In this document: piece by piece, positions 2,104 to 50,821 of the stretch
Layout of the letters: each line of letters begins with the position of its first letter
How positions within the stretch are numbered: position 1 is the first letter of the stretch
Source: a virus
Strand: one strand, 5' to 3'
DNA: 64,000 nt
UHGV virus genome: UHGV-0125821
The notes under the pieces: generated by a model
Told to the model about the DNA's origin: nothing
What the model saw: the letters and a program-made list of their open reading frames with translations, nothing else
Databases searched by the model: none
Program-made: the position numbers and the translations under genes

Positions 2104-4021
2104 CAATCCTTTACGAATTAATATTCAGTCTACTTTTGCTGATACGATCCCCGGCTATGTGCCAAGTCGCTGGTCTTCAGAAGAATTAAGCGAAGATGAC
2201 CTGATTTTTGAGGCGGCGACCTTAGAAGATATTGAGCTTGCCTATATGGGCAATGAAATTCTGGTTGTGTCTGACGAAGCTATGTTTGAGTCCATAACTA
2301 CAACCAGAATTCGGTTAGCTCAAACAATGCGAGCTTTCGTCCGTGCGCTGAATCGTGGCCTGAATGGTACGAATATTATGGCAGGGACTGATGAAGCCGG
2401 GACCGATGAAAATGGACGTAATTGTATTGGTGGTGCGATTATCGGTCGTGTACGTCGGGTAGCTAATATCCCTGTTTTGACCGCGCAGATACCGCTTACT
2501 GACGGGCAGAGTACAAGCATAATTTTCCACTCTCCAACAGCTGACGGGGCAAAAATAAAGAGTAACGACGAGCTTGTTGCATTTCAGTTTTTACTTAATA
2601 AGCGTAACGTAACTCACGTTGTCGCCCCGATTGGTGGGAGAGATGTTTCTTTAAGCCAGGTATGCCAGGCGCTATCTAATTTGATTGAGCGTAACAGCGA
2701 AAAATTTAAGAAAGCAAAAGAGCGCCAGGACAAAATGAAGGCAGATATTGAGAGTTATCTCAATGAAGCAGATAAACTGGCAGAAGAACGGTCAATAATG
2801 ATTGATCAGGTGGACGTTGCGCAACGTGGGCTGACTGAAAAGCGTGCTGCTCTTACGGAGATGCAAAAAAAACTTGATGCCCAGAAAGCCATCAACGAGG
2901 AATTACAAGAAAAACGCGATAAATTGTTGTCTGCTAAAGGTGAAAAAACGAAGGAACGAGCGTTTAGTGACCAGCTGCGACATGTAAAACATAATCTTGC
3001 CATTGACGGAAAAACAGTGCTGGATAATGGCGCTGAAGTTAATTATATCACGTCCGGCAGTGACAATTTCGTTACGATAGTAGCACCTGAAGGTAAATTC
3101 AGTATTGATGCCAGTGCTGTCAAAGGAGGCAGTTTGGCAGATGCTGCAACCAAATTACTTAAAGCCTACCGAGAGCATAACGCAGATAAATATAAAGTTG
3201 ATGTGTTACCAGGCCAGCAGGAAGACCCCGAACCACCACAGACAGACCCCGAGACGAACCCAGTATCACAACCAGAGAGCCAGGATGTAGGTAAATACCA
3301 CTATGCACTTCAATCTCGCCCGGCTGGTGTTGGTGCTGTGCCGGATGGAAATAAAGCCGTGCTTGATCGTCCTGACCAGGCTGATCAGTATTACGAATAT
3401 GCTCGTCACGGTATCATTACGTATGACCGTAAACTGACAGATGAAGAAGTCAGCCAGTACGAGTTGCTCTATCTTCCTGATGAAGATGAGCTGAAAGATT
3501 TTGCAGGCCAATTGGTTGTGTCCAGCATGTCGAAACATATTGATGGCTATGTAGACCTGTTTGGCAGTGACCTGAAAACATTCAAGGCGCAAGTGAAAAT
3601 TCTTTTCCGCAAAGCGTTTCCAAACGTGGCGTATCCACTTGGTGATGGGGAGAACCTTTTCATTATGGACGTGTATAACGCCCTTCAAAATCATTCAAGC
3701 GAAGTAAAAACAGAGCATGTGGTTGAGCCGGAATCACAACCACAACCAGCACCAGAACAGGAGCCGGAGCCAGAAGAAGCTGGTGAATCAGCAAGTGAAG
3801 CTGATCAGGAGGCAGATAAAGCACTGGAGTACCTGAAATCCGTGCCGGAGCAGTTTACATCCCGCGATCTGACGGTCATCAGTGCTGAACTTGATCATGT
3901 GCAGGAAGCAGCAAACGCTCTAATCAGCGCAGGTCGATACGACGAGAACGAAGCCACTGTTGGTGCAGCAGTTGACTACCTGATCAACATTCTGGCTGAA
4001 ATTCAGCAGGGAGGTGCTTAA
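2096..4021 (+). CDS. Large internal head/antirestriction-type protein (DarA-position; about 641 aa)
   Basis: Size and operon position match P1 DarA; ATG at 2096 follows a GGAGG; acidic Pro/Glu-rich linkers. I do not recognise the sequence itself, so the name is positional. Confidence 0.45.
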   Translation: MINNPLRINIQSTFADTIPGYVPSRWSSEELSEDDLIFEAATLEDIELAYMGNEILVVSDEAMFESITTTRIRLAQTMRAFVRALNRGLNGTNIMAGTDEAGTDENGRNCIGGAIIGRVRRVANIPVLTAQIPLTDGQSTSIIFHSPTADGAKIKSNDELVAFQFLLNKRNVTHVVAPIGGRDVSLSQVCQALSNLIERNSEKFKKAKERQDKMKADIESYLNEADKLAEERSIMIDQVDVAQRGLTEKRAALTEMQKKLDAQKAINEELQEKRDKLLSAKGEKTKERAFSDQLRHVKHNLAIDGKTVLDNGAEVNYITSGSDNFVTIVAPEGKFSIDASAVKGGSLADAATKLLKAYREHNADKYKVDVLPGQQEDPEPPQTDPETNPVSQPESQDVGKYHYALQSRPAGVGAVPDGNKAVLDRPDQADQYYEYARHGIITYDRKLTDEEVSQYELLYLPDEDELKDFAGQLVVSSMSKHIDGYVDLFGSDLKTFKAQVKILFRKAFPNVAYPLGDGENLFIMDVYNALQNHSSEVKTEHVVEPESQPQPAPEQEPEPEEAGESASEADQEADKALEYLKSVPEQFTSRDLTVISAELDHVQEAANALISAGRYDENEATVGAAVDYLINILAEIQQGGA

Positions 4022-9842: not shown

Positions 9843-9873
9843 TTGTGTTAGAAAATTAATTTGCTGTTTCTAA
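9843..9873. promoter_or_regulatory. Bivalent operator-like site (GTTAGA-N16-TCTAA inverted pair) upstream of the c4/icd/ant-like module
   Basis: TGTGTTAGAAAATTAATTTGCTGTTTCTAAA; same core spacing as three other bivalent copies; positioned like P1 Op51. Confidence 0.45.
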
Positions 9874-10078
9874 ATCGGAATGTATGATCTGCATCATCGA
9901 CTGAAGTCATCCATTGCTGAAATTTTTAGTTGATCTTCCATGTTTTCAGGCTTATATTCATGTCGTCGTAGCAAATTCTGCGACCGGGTTTAGCAGCCTG
10001 AATACGAATGCGGACAACCGCAGATATCCGATATTGCGGTATTTTTGTGTCCGTAAAACCACGTTACGCCCGAATTAT

Positions 10079-10155
10079 GGTGGGGCGTGATGGGGAGGCT
10101 TCGGCCTGCTGGTTTCATTCGTGCCAGTCTGCTAACCCCGTCACGTCCTGCCACC
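10079..10155 (+). ncRNA. c4-like antisense immunity RNA (candidate)
   Basis: Long closing stem GGTGGGGCGTGA...TCACGTCCTGCCACC around an AGGC-TTCG-GCCT hairpin; internal CTGCTAAC is complementary to GTTTAGCAGC repeats at about 9988 and 10157, the second just upstream of the icd-like RBS. Boundaries approximate. Confidence 0.35.
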
Positions 10156-10205
10156 CGTTTAGCAGCGGGGCGCAGGTTGTTAAACCTACGAATGAGGCCG
10201 TAACT

Positions 10206-10430
10206 ATGGTTAATGCCAATCCTTGCTCGCGCCCGGAATTTATCTGGCGTTTCCACTCCCTGCAAAAACACTGCGATCACTTCGCAATTGCCGCAACTGA
10301 AAAAGAAGCCCGTTCTCTGATCCCTGATCAACATGGCGTCCTGACTGGCCGTTTCTCTACTTCATCACAACCAAACACTAATCCTTGGTATCGCAATATT
10401 GCCAATCCCGGAATTGCGGAGGCACACTGA
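10206..10430 (+). CDS. Icd-like small protein (Ash/Icd family signature FIWRF...AATE.EAR)
   Basis: 74 aa from the ATG at 10206; motif PEFIWRFHSLQKHCDHFAIAATEKEARSLIP; paralog at 48952-49122. The 140-aa track ORF from 10008 is rejected. Confidence 0.5.
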   Translation: MVNANPCSRPEFIWRFHSLQKHCDHFAIAATEKEARSLIPDQHGVLTGRFSTSSQPNTNPWYRNIANPGIAEAH

Positions 10431-11137
10431 TGGATATCTGCATTCTTGAAAAGCCATCAATGACCAGCATTGAGATCGCGGAGCTGGTGGGAAAACGTCA
10501 TGACAATGTGAAGCGTACCATTGAAACATTAGCCGAATCCGGCGTTATTGTTCGTCCTCAAATTGAGGATGAACCAAAAATAGATGTAATGGGGCGTTCT
10601 CGATTAATTCAGGTGTTCCGATTTAGCGACGAGCAAGGCAAACGAGACAGTATTATTGTAGTCGCACAGCTTTGTCCTGAGTTTACTGCCCGGCTGGTGG
10701 ACCGCTGGCGCGAACTGGAAGAACAAGTACGCCAGCCGTTGACCGAAATAGAGATGATCGCCGCAATGGCTGCAAATGCAGTTCAGCAGCAAAAGCGGCT
10801 TCATGCTGTTGAGTCAAAGGTTAGCCAGGTCGCTGAAACCGTCGAGCAAATCAAGAAGGGCAACATTCCGGAAGGTTACATTGGCTACCGCCAGCTGGCG
10901 GCAAAATGCGGCCTGACCGAAGCCAAATGTCGCAACCTGGTTAACGCTTACCGGATTCCCACCGATACACATGAGTTTTTAACTCCAGAGGGGGTATTGT
11001 CGCGTCGTTCCATCGTGGCCTTATCTCCCTTCATGAATGCTTTTAACCGGATGATGTCGGAGGCTGAACACCGAGGAAAACGCTGGTATCACCCCAAAAT
11101 GGGGCAATTCCAGGTGATCGGTTGGGGAGGTGAGTGA
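10430..11137 (+). CDS. Antirepressor, Rha family (Ant-like)
   Basis: N-terminal SIEIAELVGKRHDNVKRTIETL is a Rha-type regulatory domain; ATG overlaps the icd-like stop (TGATG). Confidence 0.6.
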   Translation: MDICILEKPSMTSIEIAELVGKRHDNVKRTIETLAESGVIVRPQIEDEPKIDVMGRSRLIQVFRFSDEQGKRDSIIVVAQLCPEFTARLVDRWRELEEQVRQPLTEIEMIAAMAANAVQQQKRLHAVESKVSQVAETVEQIKKGNIPEGYIGYRQLAAKCGLTEAKCRNLVNAYRIPTDTHEFLTPEGVLSRRSIVALSPFMNAFNRMMSEAEHRGKRWYHPKMGQFQVIGWGGE

Positions 11138-23272: not shown

Positions 23273-23348
23273 GATGGTGTAGCTCAGCGGTTAGAGCGGT
23301 TGACTGTTAATCAACGGGTCGATGGTTCAAATCCATCCACCATCGCCA
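23273..23348 (+). tRNA. tRNA-Asn (anticodon GTT)
   Basis: Manual fold: 7-bp acceptor GATGGTG/CACCATC, D-arm GCTC..GAGC, anticodon loop CTGTTAA, T-arm GATGG-TTCAAAT-CCATC, 3-prime CCA. Confidence 0.9.
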
Positions 23349-23350
23349 AT

Positions 23351-23426
23351 GCCGGTTTAGCTCAGTTGGTAGAGCGCCTGCCTTGTAAGCAGGATGTCAG
23401 CGGTTCGAGTCCGTTAACCGGCACCA
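23351..23426 (+). tRNA. tRNA-Thr (anticodon TGT)
   Basis: Acceptor GCCGGTT/AACCGGC, anticodon loop CTTGTAA, T-loop TTCGAGT, 3-prime CCA; 2 nt after tRNA-Asn. Confidence 0.9.
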
Positions 23427-25375: not shown

Positions 25376-25451
25376 GGCCCTTTAGCTCAGTGGTTAGAGC
25401 AGGCGACTCATAATCGCACGGTCACCGGTTCAAATCCGGTAGGGGCCACCA
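25376..25451 (+). tRNA. tRNA-Ile (anticodon CAT, lysidine type; tRNA-Met not excluded)
   Basis: GGCCCTTTAGCTCAGTGGTTAGAGCAGGCGACTCATAATCGC... closely resembles E. coli ileX/ileY tRNA; 3-prime CCA encoded. Confidence 0.85.
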
Positions 25452-46679: not shown

Positions 46680-47314
46680 GCAGAACTCCTTCTAACCAAA
46701 AGAACGCCATCTTCAGAAACAACGTTGCAGGACTTCAGGTAATTCATTGCCTCTTTCGGTAATGGATTCTTTGGATCGGCGTTTGCCAGGGATTTCGATA
46801 ACCTCATGATAAATTTGATCATTACCTTCTGGCGGAGCTTGTGCTCATGAGATAAAGAAAGGTAATAGGAAATGGTATGGGCTAAACGCTCACGAAGCTG
46901 TTCTGTGCCGTGATATACAGCAGCGATATCACGCAGTGCATTGACCAGTTCCCGGTAAATATGTGGAGCAACCTGGCATTCAATGTTGGTTGGTGACTCA
47001 TAAATTACAGTCAGCCCCAGCTTTTCAGCCAGCGCGTGCTCTGCACGAGCACCAACCGATTCTTCCCATTGATTGAGCAAATAGATCGCATCAGCAGAAC
47101 GCACCATTGCCAGGCAAATATCCATGTATTCACTCTGGCAAAGGCCACCAGGTAACACCGCTGGATTCAGAACGATATGCCCTTCAGCCATCAGCTCGCT
47201 CGCTTTCGCATTAAACGCCGCACGGTTGTAATCTGGATAACCAGTCATCGGCCCCGCGATGTAAATTTTCAAAACACGTTTCACCATCAAAATTTCCCCA
47301 AAATCGTGACGCAA
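46676..47314 (-). CDS. DUF4406-like (nucleoside 2-deoxyribosyltransferase-fold) protein with C-terminal extension
   Basis: KIYIAGPMTGYPDYNRAAF...HIVLNPA...DAIYLL fits the DUF4406 pattern; start may be the internal Met at about 47287. Confidence 0.5.
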   Translation of the reverse strand: MRHDFGEILMVKRVLKIYIAGPMTGYPDYNRAAFNAKASELMAEGHIVLNPAVLPGGLCQSEYMDICLAMVRSADAIYLLNQWEESVGARAEHALAEKLGLTVIYESPTNIECQVAPHIYRELVNALRDIAAVYHGTEQLRERLAHTISYYLSLSHEHKLRQKVMIKFIMRLSKSLANADPKNPLPKEAMNYLKSCNVVSEDGVLLVRRSSA

Positions 47315-47480
47315 AACATAAGCACTGCGAAAAGCTCAATACCAAGCTCAAGTAGCGCCAACGCCCCGAAAAACAACACATAGAACAGGCCAATCTCATT
47401 CACAGATGGCTGGTGGATCGCACTTAAAGCTATAAGCATCATGTCCTCCAAACAGTTATCAGGAATGATATTAATGTTTT

Positions 47481-47510
47481 GTGTTAGAAAATCAATTTTG
47501 AATATCTAAC
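47481..47510. promoter_or_regulatory. Bivalent operator-like site between divergent ref and the minus-strand early operon
   Basis: GTGTTAGAAAATCAATTTTGAATATCTAAC with 16-bp core spacing; P1 ref is C1-controlled. Confidence 0.5.
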
Positions 47511-47559
47511 TGTTTTGATCAATCATAGAAAAATAGCTGAAAAGTAAGAGGCAGCCATC

Positions 47560-48138
47560 ATGCAGAAACAGAGCTATTGGGAGAAACAGAGACAAAAAGC
47601 CATGCAAAAATTGGCTGACCCAGCCTGGCGAGAGGAACAAAGGGCAAAGCGCCTTCAACAAGCTCAACGCCAGCAGCAACGAGCGAGAGAAAAAGCCGCA
47701 TCGCCTGAATATCGGCAAAAGAGAATTGAAAAAGCAAAGCAATATGACCAGCGGAGAAAAGAGAAAACTGTATCCGCTCCGTCCAAAAAAACACGCACGT
47801 CACGCGGCCTGAAGGGCAGATCACTCACAGCCGATGAACGCCGGATACAGACCGCTATCGGTACTCTCCCCTGCATTGCCTGCCATATTCACGGGCAACA
47901 TAGCCCAGTGGTATCCCTGCACCATATCTTCGGGAGAACGGCAGAGAACGCGCATAAATATGTCCTCCCTTTGTGTAAATGGCACCACCAGTACGCAGCG
48001 CCAGCCGAGGTCCGAGAACAATATCCCTGGCTGGTCCCTGTTCATGCTGACGGAAAAATAGGCGGAAAAGCAGATTTCATGCGGCACAATGCCGATGAAA
48101 TGACGTTATATCAGATGGCGATTGAATTGATAAATTAG
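47560..48138 (+). CDS. ref: Ref-like HNH endonuclease (recombination enhancement function)
   Basis: Basic disordered N-terminal region followed by Cys/His-rich core CIACHIHGQH...LCKWHHQ, as in P1 Ref; size close to P1 Ref. Confidence 0.8.
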   Translation: MQKQSYWEKQRQKAMQKLADPAWREEQRAKRLQQAQRQQQRAREKAASPEYRQKRIEKAKQYDQRRKEKTVSAPSKKTRTSRGLKGRSLTADERRIQTAIGTLPCIACHIHGQHSPVVSLHHIFGRTAENAHKYVLPLCKWHHQYAAPAEVREQYPWLVPVHADGKIGGKADFMRHNADEMTLYQMAIELIN

Positions 48139-48149
48139 TTTTCTAACAT
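48135..48149. promoter_or_regulatory. Operator-like motif TTAGTTTTCTAACAT right after the ref stop
   Basis: Exact shared 15-mer. Confidence 0.4.
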
Positions 48150-48469
48150 TTTAAGTTGAATTGTAAATTTCTCCGATGTACATTCACTACCGATTGGCAC
48201 ACCGGTCAACTTTTTGAGACAAACTGTTTAGTTTTTCGTATTATTGCCGCCGCCATACCTATGGCGGTGCAATATAGGTGGCTGAAAAGCCCCCGTTGAC
48301 TCACGGTGTTCCAGCCTTTATTGCGCCGCCACCAGACCGTGGAACAGTCGATGGCGGCTCCGAAAGCAAGGAGTCACTACACTATGAACAACTACAGTCT
48401 TTTCCCATCACTCGTCGTCCACCACTCACGCGATAATCTGCATTCTTTACTCGCGCTGGGGGTGTCAAA

Positions 48470-48637
48470 ATGACTGTTCGCTACCTCAACTTTCAAATCA
48501 AGAACATTACTGGCGGTTGCTATGACTGGTTTGTCACTCTCGGAAAAGAAGTGATCACCGGGAAGCTGGATGAAGTGAAAGCTAAAGCAATGGCCTACGC
48601 CTGCAAGCAAGCCCGGAAGAAATCCGCCAAAGCATAA
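48470..48637 (+). CDS. Hypothetical small protein (55 aa, below the ORF-track cutoff)
   Basis: ATG preceded by GGGGG; followed by a strong terminator at 48743-48766. Confidence 0.3.
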   Translation: MTVRYLNFQIKNITGGCYDWFVTLGKEVITGKLDEVKAKAMAYACKQARKKSAKA

Positions 48638-48742
48638 AATACTGACTGTTGCGCCCTGGCATTATCGTGGGGTATATTTCTACGGCACCTTAGAAAAACG
48701 GGTGCCGGGATTGGAACCCCGGATAATGCAAAAGGCGACACA

Positions 48743-48766
48743 GACGCCGAAAGCGTCTTTTTTTTT
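48743..48766 (+). terminator. Rho-independent terminator
   Basis: GACGC-CGAAA-GCGTC followed by nine T. Confidence 0.75.
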
Positions 48767-48815
48767 GTGTCATGCCATCGCACAGCCATACGTAGCGTTT
48801 AGCTCAGAGATCAAT

Positions 48816-48891
48816 GGTAGTGCTGGCTGGGCTGCCGAAAGGCAGGCCGGTTCCCTTTTGCGCCGGTAGTTCCAACCCAGTCAGTGCTACC
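48816..48891 (+). ncRNA. Second c4-like antisense RNA (candidate)
   Basis: Stem GGTAGTGCTGG...CCAGTCAGTGCTACC around a CTGCC-GAAA-GGCAG hairpin; internal GGTAGTTCCAA is complementary to TTGGAAC...GGTAGC around the RBS of the icd-like ORF. Boundaries approximate. Confidence 0.3.
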
Positions 48892-48951
48892 GCCATTGAG
48901 ATTGGAACCTCACGCGGTAGCTCCTTAAATTAGCAAAAGGAGGCTGCCAAT

Positions 48952-49122
48952 ATGGCTACTATCCCTACCCCAACTCATTCTGAATTTATCTGGCGTTTCT
49001 ATTCCTGCCAAAAGCACCTGTATATCTGCGTCATGGCTGCTACCGAATCAGAGGCGCGCTCATACCTTCCCGAAGAACCCTGCATTTTTGCTGCTCGCTT
49101 CACTCTAATTGAAAGGTCTTAA
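48952..49122 (+). CDS. Second Icd-like small protein (56 aa)
   Basis: SEFIWRFYSCQKHLYICVMAATESEARSYLP is paralogous to the 10206-10430 product; SD AAGGAGG. Confidence 0.45.
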   Translation: MATIPTPTHSEFIWRFYSCQKHLYICVMAATESEARSYLPEEPCIFAARFTLIERS

Positions 49123-49244
49123 CGATAGTCTGCCACGAATAGTTACTTCCACTGCCTAAAGTTATTTAATTGCATTACAAAGTGTAAATTAGTAACATTA
49201 GAATCTCACACAGCACTATAACTATATGTTTTTTATGTAAAAGG

Positions 49245-49604
49245 ATGATAATCGTGGCTACTAAAATTAAACTTGAAAACCCTCAAACTGGCGAATCAAT
49301 CACCGGTTTTTATGGTTTTTCCTGGACTACATTCTTGTTTGGTGCTTTTCCAGCTTTGTTCAGGAAAGACTTTATAACTTTTATTGGGGTATTTGTAGTG
49401 ATGCTGATACTGGCATTCCTCACAGCCGGAATTGGCCCGTGGATTGCCTCATTTATCTGGGCGTTCATGTATAATAAATATTTCACCGTAAATAAGATAA
49501 AACAAGGCTTCATTTTTGCTGGTTCTCACACAGAAAATGAGTTGGCTGCTAGCAAGCTAGGATTGTCATTAAATCAAAACAACTGCAAAACTATTACCGA
49601 GTAA
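49245..49604 (+). CDS. Small membrane protein (DUF2628-like, tentative)
   Basis: ENPQTGESITGFYGFSWTTFLFGAFPALFRKDF plus two TM helices; AT-rich gene. Confidence 0.45.
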   Translation: MIIVATKIKLENPQTGESITGFYGFSWTTFLFGAFPALFRKDFITFIGVFVVMLILAFLTAGIGPWIASFIWAFMYNKYFTVNKIKQGFIFAGSHTENELAASKLGLSLNQNNCKTITE

Positions 49605-49643
49605 AGCCAAAAAGCAGGCTTAATAGTAAGCCTGCTATGTCAA

Positions 49644-50477
49644 TCACGAATCTCTCTGACAATTCAGAAACATAAACGCCCGCTTGTCTGTTAAATCCGT
49701 AACATAATACTCTCTCATGCCTGTAGGTTTTATTCTACGAGCATATACAAACTTATGAACTGGTTGTTTTTCCCCATAACTTACATCAGTCCTAAATTCA
49801 TCAACCACGCTACCATCTTTTTCAGTTTCCTTTCTCACTAGCTGATTTTCTAATACAGGCTTTGATTCGTCCATGCCACTAAAAGCATCCTGACCTGTGC
49901 TGTTGCCTCGGTTTCCGCGTGGCAAATCCCATGAAAAATAAGTGCCATAGTCAGTAATCACACGATCCCATGTTCCGGAATCCCCCATATAGTTAGAACG
50001 CTCCCCCTTGTAAGTTACAGCCACCTTACAGGCATACGTTTCACCATTATTTTTTTTATCATGTCCAGCCATGCTTGCAGGAGTTGCAGGGGAATTATGA
50101 ATAGATGCGCTTACATCATCTTGCGTTAATTCCTCAACTGGAGCAAATTCATATATGGGTGTGCCGAGGCTATTTAAATATAACTTATATCTAACCCTAA
50201 GCGCACTTCCATCAGAGAATTCATACGTTCCCAGACATTGGAGCTTATTTTTTTCTCTTATCTCATTGATCTGATTATAAGCATCAATTACAGAGATTGC
50301 TTCCTGATCGTCCTTAAGCAGTTCATTATAATCATCGATTAACATCTGTCTGGTTTTAGGGGCATTACAGTCAATTTTGCTAAAATCATAAGCAAAGGCA
50401 AATGTGGGAACAGAGAGAGCAACAACAGTAGCAAGTATTGTTGAGGAACATCTTTTCCCATTTTTTATAAAAAACAT
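49644..50477 (-). CDS. Secreted/exported hypothetical protein (AT-rich cargo)
   Basis: Start at the internal Met (50477) gives a signal peptide MFFIKNGKRCSSTILATVVALSVPTFAFA with GGAG upstream; the track start at 50555 is less likely. Confidence 0.5.
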   Translation of the reverse strand: MFFIKNGKRCSSTILATVVALSVPTFAFAYDFSKIDCNAPKTRQMLIDDYNELLKDDQEAISVIDAYNQINEIREKNKLQCLGTYEFSDGSALRVRYKLYLNSLGTPIYEFAPVEELTQDDVSASIHNSPATPASMAGHDKKNNGETYACKVAVTYKGERSNYMGDSGTWDRVITDYGTYFSWDLPRGNRGNSTGQDAFSGMDESKPVLENQLVRKETEKDGSVVDEFRTDVSYGEKQPVHKFVYARRIKPTGMREYYVTDLTDKRAFMFLNCQRDS

Positions 50478-50821
50478 TTCATTAACTCCATACTTTACCA
50501 TCTTAGCCGCGAGCGCGGTCCCTAAAACCCTTAACTTCACTGCACCGTCCTTCATGCAATCAAAATGACTTTTATGTTATAAAAATAATCAGCAAAATCA
50601 ACATGATTTAGGCCAAATTTCGGTCAAAAATAAAATCCACAAAAAGTGGTTGACACTATTTTGGAAATCACAAACTGCACATAATCCATCGCGCTAACGG
50701 CTCCCGTTGAAGGTTCTTTTGACGATTAACTTTCAGCCGAAGCGCGGTAGGGAGTCATAACGCCAAAGCAGGCCGCCATGTGCGGCCTTTTTTTGTATCC
50801 GTCATCCGTGGAGGAAGGACA

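Follow-up and report, generated by a model that had tools for sequence, protein, structure and literature searches.

In phage P1, the c4 antisense RNA is processed from an operon transcript and pairs with two target segments, a2 and b2, which blocks translation of icd and silences the antirepressor gene coupled to it (PMC8198154, citing Citron & Schuster 1990 and Riedel et al. 1993). In both P1 and P7, c4 acts in trans (PMC8198154). Here we describe a locus of this type in a 64,000-nucleotide (nt) stretch of viral DNA, UHGV virus genome UHGV-0125821 (hereafter, the window). An initial annotation of the window had reported, besides a canonical ImmI-like locus, a second antisense-RNA module with an Icd-like open reading frame (ORF) at 48790–49604, and had proposed that it gates a small membrane protein as an exclusion or toxin-like switch. 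Our analysis identified the locus as the second c4 immunity module of a D6-like phage-plasmid from which the antirepressor gene has been deleted, that is, a variant of a well-known system.

Three other described systems are close to this locus. In Gifsy-1, IsrK controls the antirepressor AnrP and shows complementarity to STnc1160, a processed RNA of ~80 nt that lies downstream and overlaps orf45; the authors liken the system to P4 seqA/CI (PMC4825925). P4 immunity relies on a processed RNA of the same family as c4, namely CI, which pairs with sites upstream and downstream of it in one transcript (seqA and seqC). P4 CI acts by ending transcription of the replication genes prematurely and not by blocking translation of icd and ant, and P4 is not known to have an icd. 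The third system is found in the phage-plasmids themselves. The second region with an antisense RNA and icd in D6-like plasmids has already been noted (PMC6799933), and so has an insertion of ant that lies between pacB and c1 in P1-like plasmids (PMC6906374). The orf83–orf82 module of D6 and the ant insertion of RCS47, JL22 and pTZ20_1P are the same module. D6 is annotated with both icd/anti-repressor pairs, and the NCBI annotation pipeline PGAP names the Icd-like ORF of the window; the new element here is the antirepressor-less deletion derivative.

The region is ~98% identical to Escherichia phage D6 (MF356679), and window positions 48640–49640 gave a 99.8% match to the Escherichia coli plasmid ptetA of strain 19-5 (NZ_CP047013.1). 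On these matches, the window is part of a D6-like phage-plasmid. Rfam was run at curated thresholds (gathering scores of 45 bits for C4, RF01695, and 50 bits for isrK, RF01394) and returned two C4 RNAs, at 10073–10158 (71.9 bits) and 48810–48897 (76.7 bits). The first belongs to a P1/P7-like ImmI locus (~9950–11137) with a c4-a1b1 target element at 9952–10004, followed by c4, icd and a gene for a 250-amino-acid (aa) Rha-type antirepressor (10073–11137). D6 has both c4 modules complete, and the second adjoins ref in D6-like elements. The window's module type is this second one, and it occupies the same place in the D6 backbone; it differs from the D6 copy in carrying another b-site allele and in lacking 1343 bp. 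Thus, the Rfam C4 match and the NCBIfam match described below bear out the initial annotation in recognizing a second c4/icd-type module distinct from the ImmI-like locus.

The missing 1343 bp were located by blastn against the D6 locus (L003 in our numbered set of related loci). Two collinear blocks were obtained: window positions 47000–49106 corresponded to L003 553–2657, and 49106–51500 to L003 4001–6396. At the deletion junction (49106/49107), L003 2658–4000 is absent, and a 1-nt microhomology (T) is present. In D6, this segment contains the 3′ end of icd (orf83, 71 aa), the anti-repressor gene orf82 and the pmgF-like orf81. The 313-aa product of orf82 matches the PHROG anti-repressor Ant (E = 6e-61), and its start overlaps the icd stop codon. 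In the second module of the window, no antirepressor gene coupled to the truncated icd (icd′) is present, and the next ORF is the homologue of D6 orf80, which encodes the predicted membrane protein. The initial annotation was therefore right that no antirepressor gene follows the module, since the D6 copy lies within the 1343 bp missing here. As judged from this alignment, the orphan state of the module is secondary and the result of an illegitimate 1343-bp deletion, and icd′ and orf80 are adjacent because of it. The D6 antirepressor gene is followed by a GC-rich hairpin that was not scored as a terminator, and we claim no terminator loss.

The intact arrangement is by far the commoner one. 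Of 438 plasmid records with a match, only 2 had the two halves contiguous, as did 1 of 423 E. coli genomes with a match; in the remaining 436 plasmid records they were split, almost all of these carrying icd, an overlapping Rha/Ant gene and a pmgF-like gene. In JL22, RCS47 and ETEC1732, and in nearly all of 80 IMG/VR loci, a long antirepressor ORF has a start that overlaps the stop of icd (−1 or −4). The ETEC1732 plasmid combines the window's specificity allele with the intact arrangement. As in P1/P7, the antirepressor of these intact relatives is translationally coupled to icd, and, as in Gifsy-1, an antirepressor is what the module controls; the window differs from both in that the antirepressor gene is missing. 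The deletion gene order was common to ten loci from separate assemblies and metagenomes and to NZ_CP047013.1, with mosaic flanks, and the exact 56-aa product of icd′ was found in 176 blocks of a large assembly collection. The number of blocks, together with an essentially invariant module between mosaic flanks, indicates that the deletion allele is an established minor lineage and not a one-off.

The truncated gene icd′ (48952–49122, + strand) encodes 56 aa and is annotated by PGAP as “host cell division inhibitor Icd-like protein”. Its product matched NCBIfam NF033153 (phage_ICD_like) with 51.2 bits against a cut-off of 25 (E = 9e-14), over profile positions 1–47 of 48, so that the likeness to Icd, which the initial annotation had proposed to check by a profile search, does not fall below significance. 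Between icd′ and the Icd of the first locus, identity was 51% over 41 residues (BLASTP E = 6e-15); the shared signature that the initial annotation had noted is present in both as EFIWRF and AATExEAR. Alignments with D6, JL22 and RCS47 showed that residues 1–52 are as in the 71-aa D6-type Icd, whereas the last four residues (IERS) and the stop codon are supplied by sequence past the deletion junction. The conserved Icd-like domain is thus whole despite the truncation, although the 56-aa Icd is a departure from P1/P7. In JL22, gp121 (L001 3265–3510) is annotated in the wrong frame; the Icd ORF is 3267–3488, with a GTG start, and overlaps the roi/ant start. The Icd-like ORF of RCS47 (L002 3267–3488) is unannotated.

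The RNA part of the module is complete. From the leader through c4 to the 5′ part of icd, nucleotide identity with the second D6 module and the ant insertions of P1-like plasmids is 92–98%. The c4 RNA (48810–48897, + strand) matches RF01695 over model positions 1–87 of 87. It consists of a long closing stem, hairpin 1, hairpin 2 with segment a′ in its loop, and then an unpaired stretch that holds segment b′. The single-sequence fold had a free energy of −46.4 kcal/mol (z = −5.5 versus shuffled sequences), and RNAalifold applied to nine c4 sequences gave 28 consensus pairs, 13 of which showed compensatory changes. On these three grounds, the structured RNA that the initial annotation had placed at this locus is well founded. 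In unprocessed transcripts, an alternative pairing could form: the 3′ strand of the c4 closing stem (GCUACCGC, 48886–48893) complements a stretch between b2 and a2 (GCGGUAGC, 48914–48921), and the two partners change jointly in the L039 and L009 types (CCACCGC with GCGGUGG).

A 39-aa ORF annotated by PGAP as “ash family protein” (48814–48933, + strand; WP_001396852.1; Pfam PF10554, Phage_ASH) overlies the c4 gene. This ORF is most likely not a real protein gene, its conservation being due to the c4 RNA that occupies the same DNA, and the Phage_ASH family looks like the translation of an RNA gene. A legacy “ash” annotation likewise overlies the RNA gene in P4. In Gifsy-1, “orf45”, which parallels the 39-aa ORF in overlying a structured RNA, was reported to be conserved in nucleotide but not in amino acid sequence (PMC4825925). 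The same orf45 was reported as translated and coupled straight to anrP with no separate icd (PMC4825925), whereas in the window an Icd-like ORF follows the RNA.

Upstream of c4 lies an element that the initial annotation had overlooked; its description of the module otherwise stands. This element, at 48685–48763 (+ strand), is an IsrK-type leader matching Rfam RF01394 with 62.5 bits over model positions 1–77 of 77. It is composed of hairpin 1, hairpin 2 with site b1 in its loop, the single-stranded site a1, and an intrinsic terminator whose stem (48742–48758) and U-run close the leader. As in Gifsy-1, the leader fits the isrK model, has a Rho-independent terminator at its 3′ end and shows complementarity to the structured RNA that comes next; the upstream target of the window is of this type, with its own terminator, rather than of the P1 a1b1 type. 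From its conserved position, a putative promoter at 48649–48678 (+ strand) would serve the module: a −35 hexamer TTGCGC (48649–48654) and a −10 hexamer TATATT (48673–48678) are separated by an 18-nt spacer, and the first base of the IsrK-type RNA (48685) lies 7 nt 3′ of the −10. In an alignment of 46 unique related loci the promoter position is kept, with TTGCGC or TTGCGT and with TATATT, TATGCT or TATCCT.

The Rfam c4-a1b1 model (RF03163) also overlaps the leader, weakly (22.4 bits). The isrK and c4-a1b1 models fall on one and the same element at window positions 48672–48763, L118 1820–1908 and L140 785–872, and in distant loci of Brenneria and Mangrovibacter both match the same element at gathering score. 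Among the loci checked whose match was not cut by the locus end, C4 came after isrK in all 12 of the close loci and in 9 others, from enterobacteria, Vibrio and Pseudomonas; these 9 are the usable distant loci from a degenerate isrK pattern scan of genome contigs, which did not recover Salmonella Gifsy-1 and otherwise gave mostly chance matches in unrelated phyla. The Rfam C4 clan (CL00128) does not include isrK. IsrK RNAs appear to be the leaders that carry the a1/b1 targets of c4 modules, extended by a terminator.

The leader, c4 and the ribosome-binding site (RBS) region of icd′ are joined by four complementarities. Segment a′ (CCUUUUGC, 48854–48861, in the loop of the second c4 hairpin) is the perfect complement of two copies of GCAAAAGG, site a1 (48728–48735, directly 5′ of the leader terminator) and site a2 (48933–48940), the latter overlapping the Shine–Dalgarno (SD) sequence AAGGAGG (48937–48943) of the icd′ ATG at 48952. 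Segment b′ (GUUCCAA, 48869–48875, in the unpaired stretch after hairpin 2) likewise complements two copies of UUGGAAC, b1 (48711–48717) in the leader and b2 (48902–48908) 3′ of c4. Complementarity, alignment and covariation define the downstream target region, b2 plus a2, as 48902–48943 (+ strand). Hence, the antisense complementarity to its own RBS region that had been claimed for the module was found, in the form of a′ and a2. The layout is that of P1/P7 ImmI: a C4-family RNA with unpaired a′ and b′ segments, a1 and b1 upstream, a2 and b2 downstream with a2 at the icd RBS, and an Icd-like ORF next. A hairpin at 48916–48948 that would sequester the SD sequence was no more stable than shuffled sequence (z = −0.76) and was discarded.

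A single 8-mer match can easily be a chance event, and the same scan returned further 8-mer matches. The significance of the sites lies in the fact that two unpaired c4 segments, of 8 and 7 nt, are each matched perfectly twice in the right order, and in covariation over 85 loci (80 IMG/VR loci with an Icd alignment plus annotated phage and plasmid loci, L001–L085, compared with window positions 48640–48975). All four pairings, Watson–Crick or G–U, were retained in 84 of these. The a sites fall into three allele sets (GCAAAAGG/CCUUUUGC, GUCAAAGG/CCUUUGAC and GUCUAAGG/CCUUGGAC) and the b sites into four (UUGGAAC/GUUCCAA, UUGAGAC/GUCUCAA, UUGGUCU/AGACCAA and UUGGCCU-UUGGUCU/AGGCCAA), which combine into seven haplotypes. 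The window's pair, GCAAAAGG with UUGGAAC, is the commonest (28 of 85 loci) and occurs in D6-like and P1-like backbones; phage D6 has UUGAGAC/GUCUCAA as its b allele instead of UUGGAAC/GUUCCAA. As in P1/P7 heteroimmunity, a few covarying bases set the specificity. This three-way covariation shows that the leader and c4 interact with each other and with the RBS region of icd as a single system, of which the window copy is intact. Locus L037 is a recombinant in which the leader b1 (UUGAGAC) mismatches its own c4 (GUUCCAA).

The second module has its own target specificity, as had been supposed. The first module has the same layout but different sequences (a′, CAUUCGU; b′, CUGCUAA), and no cross-complementarity was found between the a and b sites of the two modules, which are therefore orthogonal. 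A search of the window with the P1 C1-operator consensus, allowing up to three mismatches, gave no match, although the P1 consensus may not be that of the D6-type repressor, and the operator-like motif that the initial annotation had placed at the first locus (9858–9875) has no second copy.

The sequence comparisons establish what the elements are, their complementarity and covariation, and the deletion; by analogy with P1/P7, we infer transcription, processing, repression and trans action as follows. In intact modules, the order is putative promoter, IsrK-type leader with the decoys a1 and b1 and the terminator, c4, b2 and a2 over the icd RBS, icd, and a coupled Rha/Ant gene. Transcripts passing the leader terminator would be processed to c4, whose a′ and b′ would pair with a2 and b2 and block translation of icd; in the intact relatives, coupling and polarity would then silence the antirepressor. 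The short terminated leader carrying a1 and b1 would titrate c4, and such titration by leader decoys would explain the activating effect of IsrK in Gifsy-1. In the window, all RNA elements are intact and perfectly complementary, and c4 therefore most likely still represses icd′. We consider it probable that c4 is still made, represses icd′, and acts in trans on incoming elements of the same a/b specificity.

Several points weigh against this conclusion. The putative trans action on incoming phages is extrapolated from P1/P7. The −35 hexamer is weak, and the promoter scored under the threshold of a consensus scan. The U-run of the leader terminator (48759–48767) has 9 T in the window versus 8 in 11 other deletion copies and 7 in most intact copies, and the longer run could lower read-through and hence c4 output. 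Finally, the deletion copies show 1 variable column in 483 nt and are too uniform to show purifying selection.

Such uniformity is also compatible with the module being an inert relic, useless since the loss of the antirepressor, in which there has simply not been time for c4, the leader and icd′ to decay. The near-identity of the deletion copies means that the event may be recent, and the gene that was lost is the defining output of the module. Moreover, D6-like elements often have a disrupted antirepressor gene in their second module: its tblastn match is split over two frames in six loci (L015, L021, L023, L024, L025 and L028), some of which, being IMG/VR contigs, could owe the disruption to assembly errors, and in L033 an independent deletion begins, on its left side, 24 nt from the window junction (D6 L003 2681 versus 2657). 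These disruptions suggest weak selection on the second module. However, all four RNA–RNA pairings, the promoter, the terminator and the full Icd-like domain are intact in the window, and the presence of the 56-aa product in 176 blocks, together with the mosaic flanks of the ten loci and NZ_CP047013.1, speaks for an allele that persists and spreads. Since c4 acts in trans in P1/P7 (PMC8198154), the module would not need an antirepressor of its own to be of use. We therefore regard an inert relic as unlikely, and retention of a repressing, trans-acting c4 as the better account.

The gene that follows icd′ is the homologue of D6 orf80 (49254–49604, + strand; 99.8% identity), which encodes a predicted small membrane protein of 116 aa. 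D6 and PGAP use a GTG start; an in-frame ATG lies at 49245. The GC content of 0.36–0.39, against ~0.52 for the module, agrees with the earlier description of an AT-rich membrane-protein gene. The protein belongs to phrog_4915 (function unknown), and a database search returned 221 relatives, typically of 106–125 aa, many of them from chromosomal genes of a range of Proteobacteria; for some, the UniRef name is DUF2628 domain-containing. Scans of Pfam, NCBIfam and PADLOC assigned neither this protein nor its simB-like neighbor to a family, and the PHROGs match of the neighbor is to a family of unknown function only (phrog_13054).

The gene lies on the same strand as icd′, 131 nt 3′ of its stop codon, and no terminator-like site was found on the + strand between 48763 and 49604. 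The deletion might thus have rewired the locus by accident, so that orf80 and Icd′ are expressed once c4 repression lifts, with a new phenotype such as an envelope change, exclusion or growth arrest. That the deletion allele is an established lineage is in keeping with this idea. P1 c4 reportedly lowers downstream transcription besides translation (Biere et al. 1992). Nevertheless, orf80 retains its native 148-nt upstream region and is probably expressed independently, as in D6, where it follows the pmgF-like gene and not icd. It lacks translational coupling to icd′, its relatives are ordinary chromosomal genes, and PADLOC gave no match. At the membrane-protein RBS, c4 a′ matches over only 6 nt (AAAAGG, 49239–49244) with no b site, and AAAAGG is already at the orf80 RBS in D6, which has another 1.3 kb between the genes; we dismissed the match as chance. 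Rewiring of this kind is improbable in our judgment, and any effect on orf80 would be a by-product of read-through. We give equally little credence to a combined form, in which the deletion yielded a trans-acting immunity RNA locus, protecting the resident plasmid against antirepressors that phages with the same a/b alleles bring in, together with a c4-dependent unit that co-expresses Icd′ and orf80 upon c4 titration. If true, rewiring could explain the spread of the allele over D6-like backbones with mosaic flanks.

The proposal of the initial annotation went further, to an evolved antisense-RNA-gated exclusion or toxin-like switch in which a membrane effector has replaced the antirepressor. 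Indeed, the membrane-protein gene lies next to the RNA and the Icd-like ORF and in the same direction, and a simB-like gene adjoins orf80. However, the linkage exists in the deletion lineage only (2 of 438 plasmids), Icd is visibly truncated at the junction, and the orf80 family is encoded in many proteobacterial chromosomes without a c4 RNA. In the distant isrK–c4 loci, the downstream genes, classed by eye from sequence motifs, resemble Rha, KilA-N or BRO-type antirepressors, Icd-like ORFs and P4-like regulators; a small membrane-protein gene was the downstream cargo in none of them. Nor did the analysis come across a separate lineage, without the deletion, in which the RBS of an orf80-family gene is itself the site of covarying c4 targets. 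An evolved switch is therefore very improbable, and the proposal is not supported; a c4 module that has lost its antirepressor by deletion accounts for the locus.

In the surroundings of orf80, an AT-rich island extends from 49100 to 50650 (GC content, 0.35–0.43, mostly <0.40). The simB-like gene (49644–50555) encodes 303 aa and lies on the strand opposite to orf80, with a bidirectional hairpin (49613–49636) between the two. The P1 sim genes adjoin ImmI. Elsewhere in the window, Rfam detected three tRNA genes (23273–23423 and 25376–25448), which fits the tRNA region described for D6-like plasmids (PMC6799933).

The main value of these results is a correction, because what appeared to be a new membrane-protein switch gated by RNA arose by deletion from a phage immunity module that was already known; the understanding of how that system works is unchanged. 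As a modest by-product, the overlapping Rfam models identify the IsrK family as the apparent a1/b1 leader of c4-type modules. For this phage, the loss leaves the first module as its only c4-controlled antirepressor, and more widely, disruption of the second antirepressor gene is frequent in D6-like elements, where the RNA part persists. P1-like and D6-like phage-plasmids, which are common and carry resistance, draw on one small combinatorial set of specificity alleles, and this has a bearing on which of them can exclude or induce each other.

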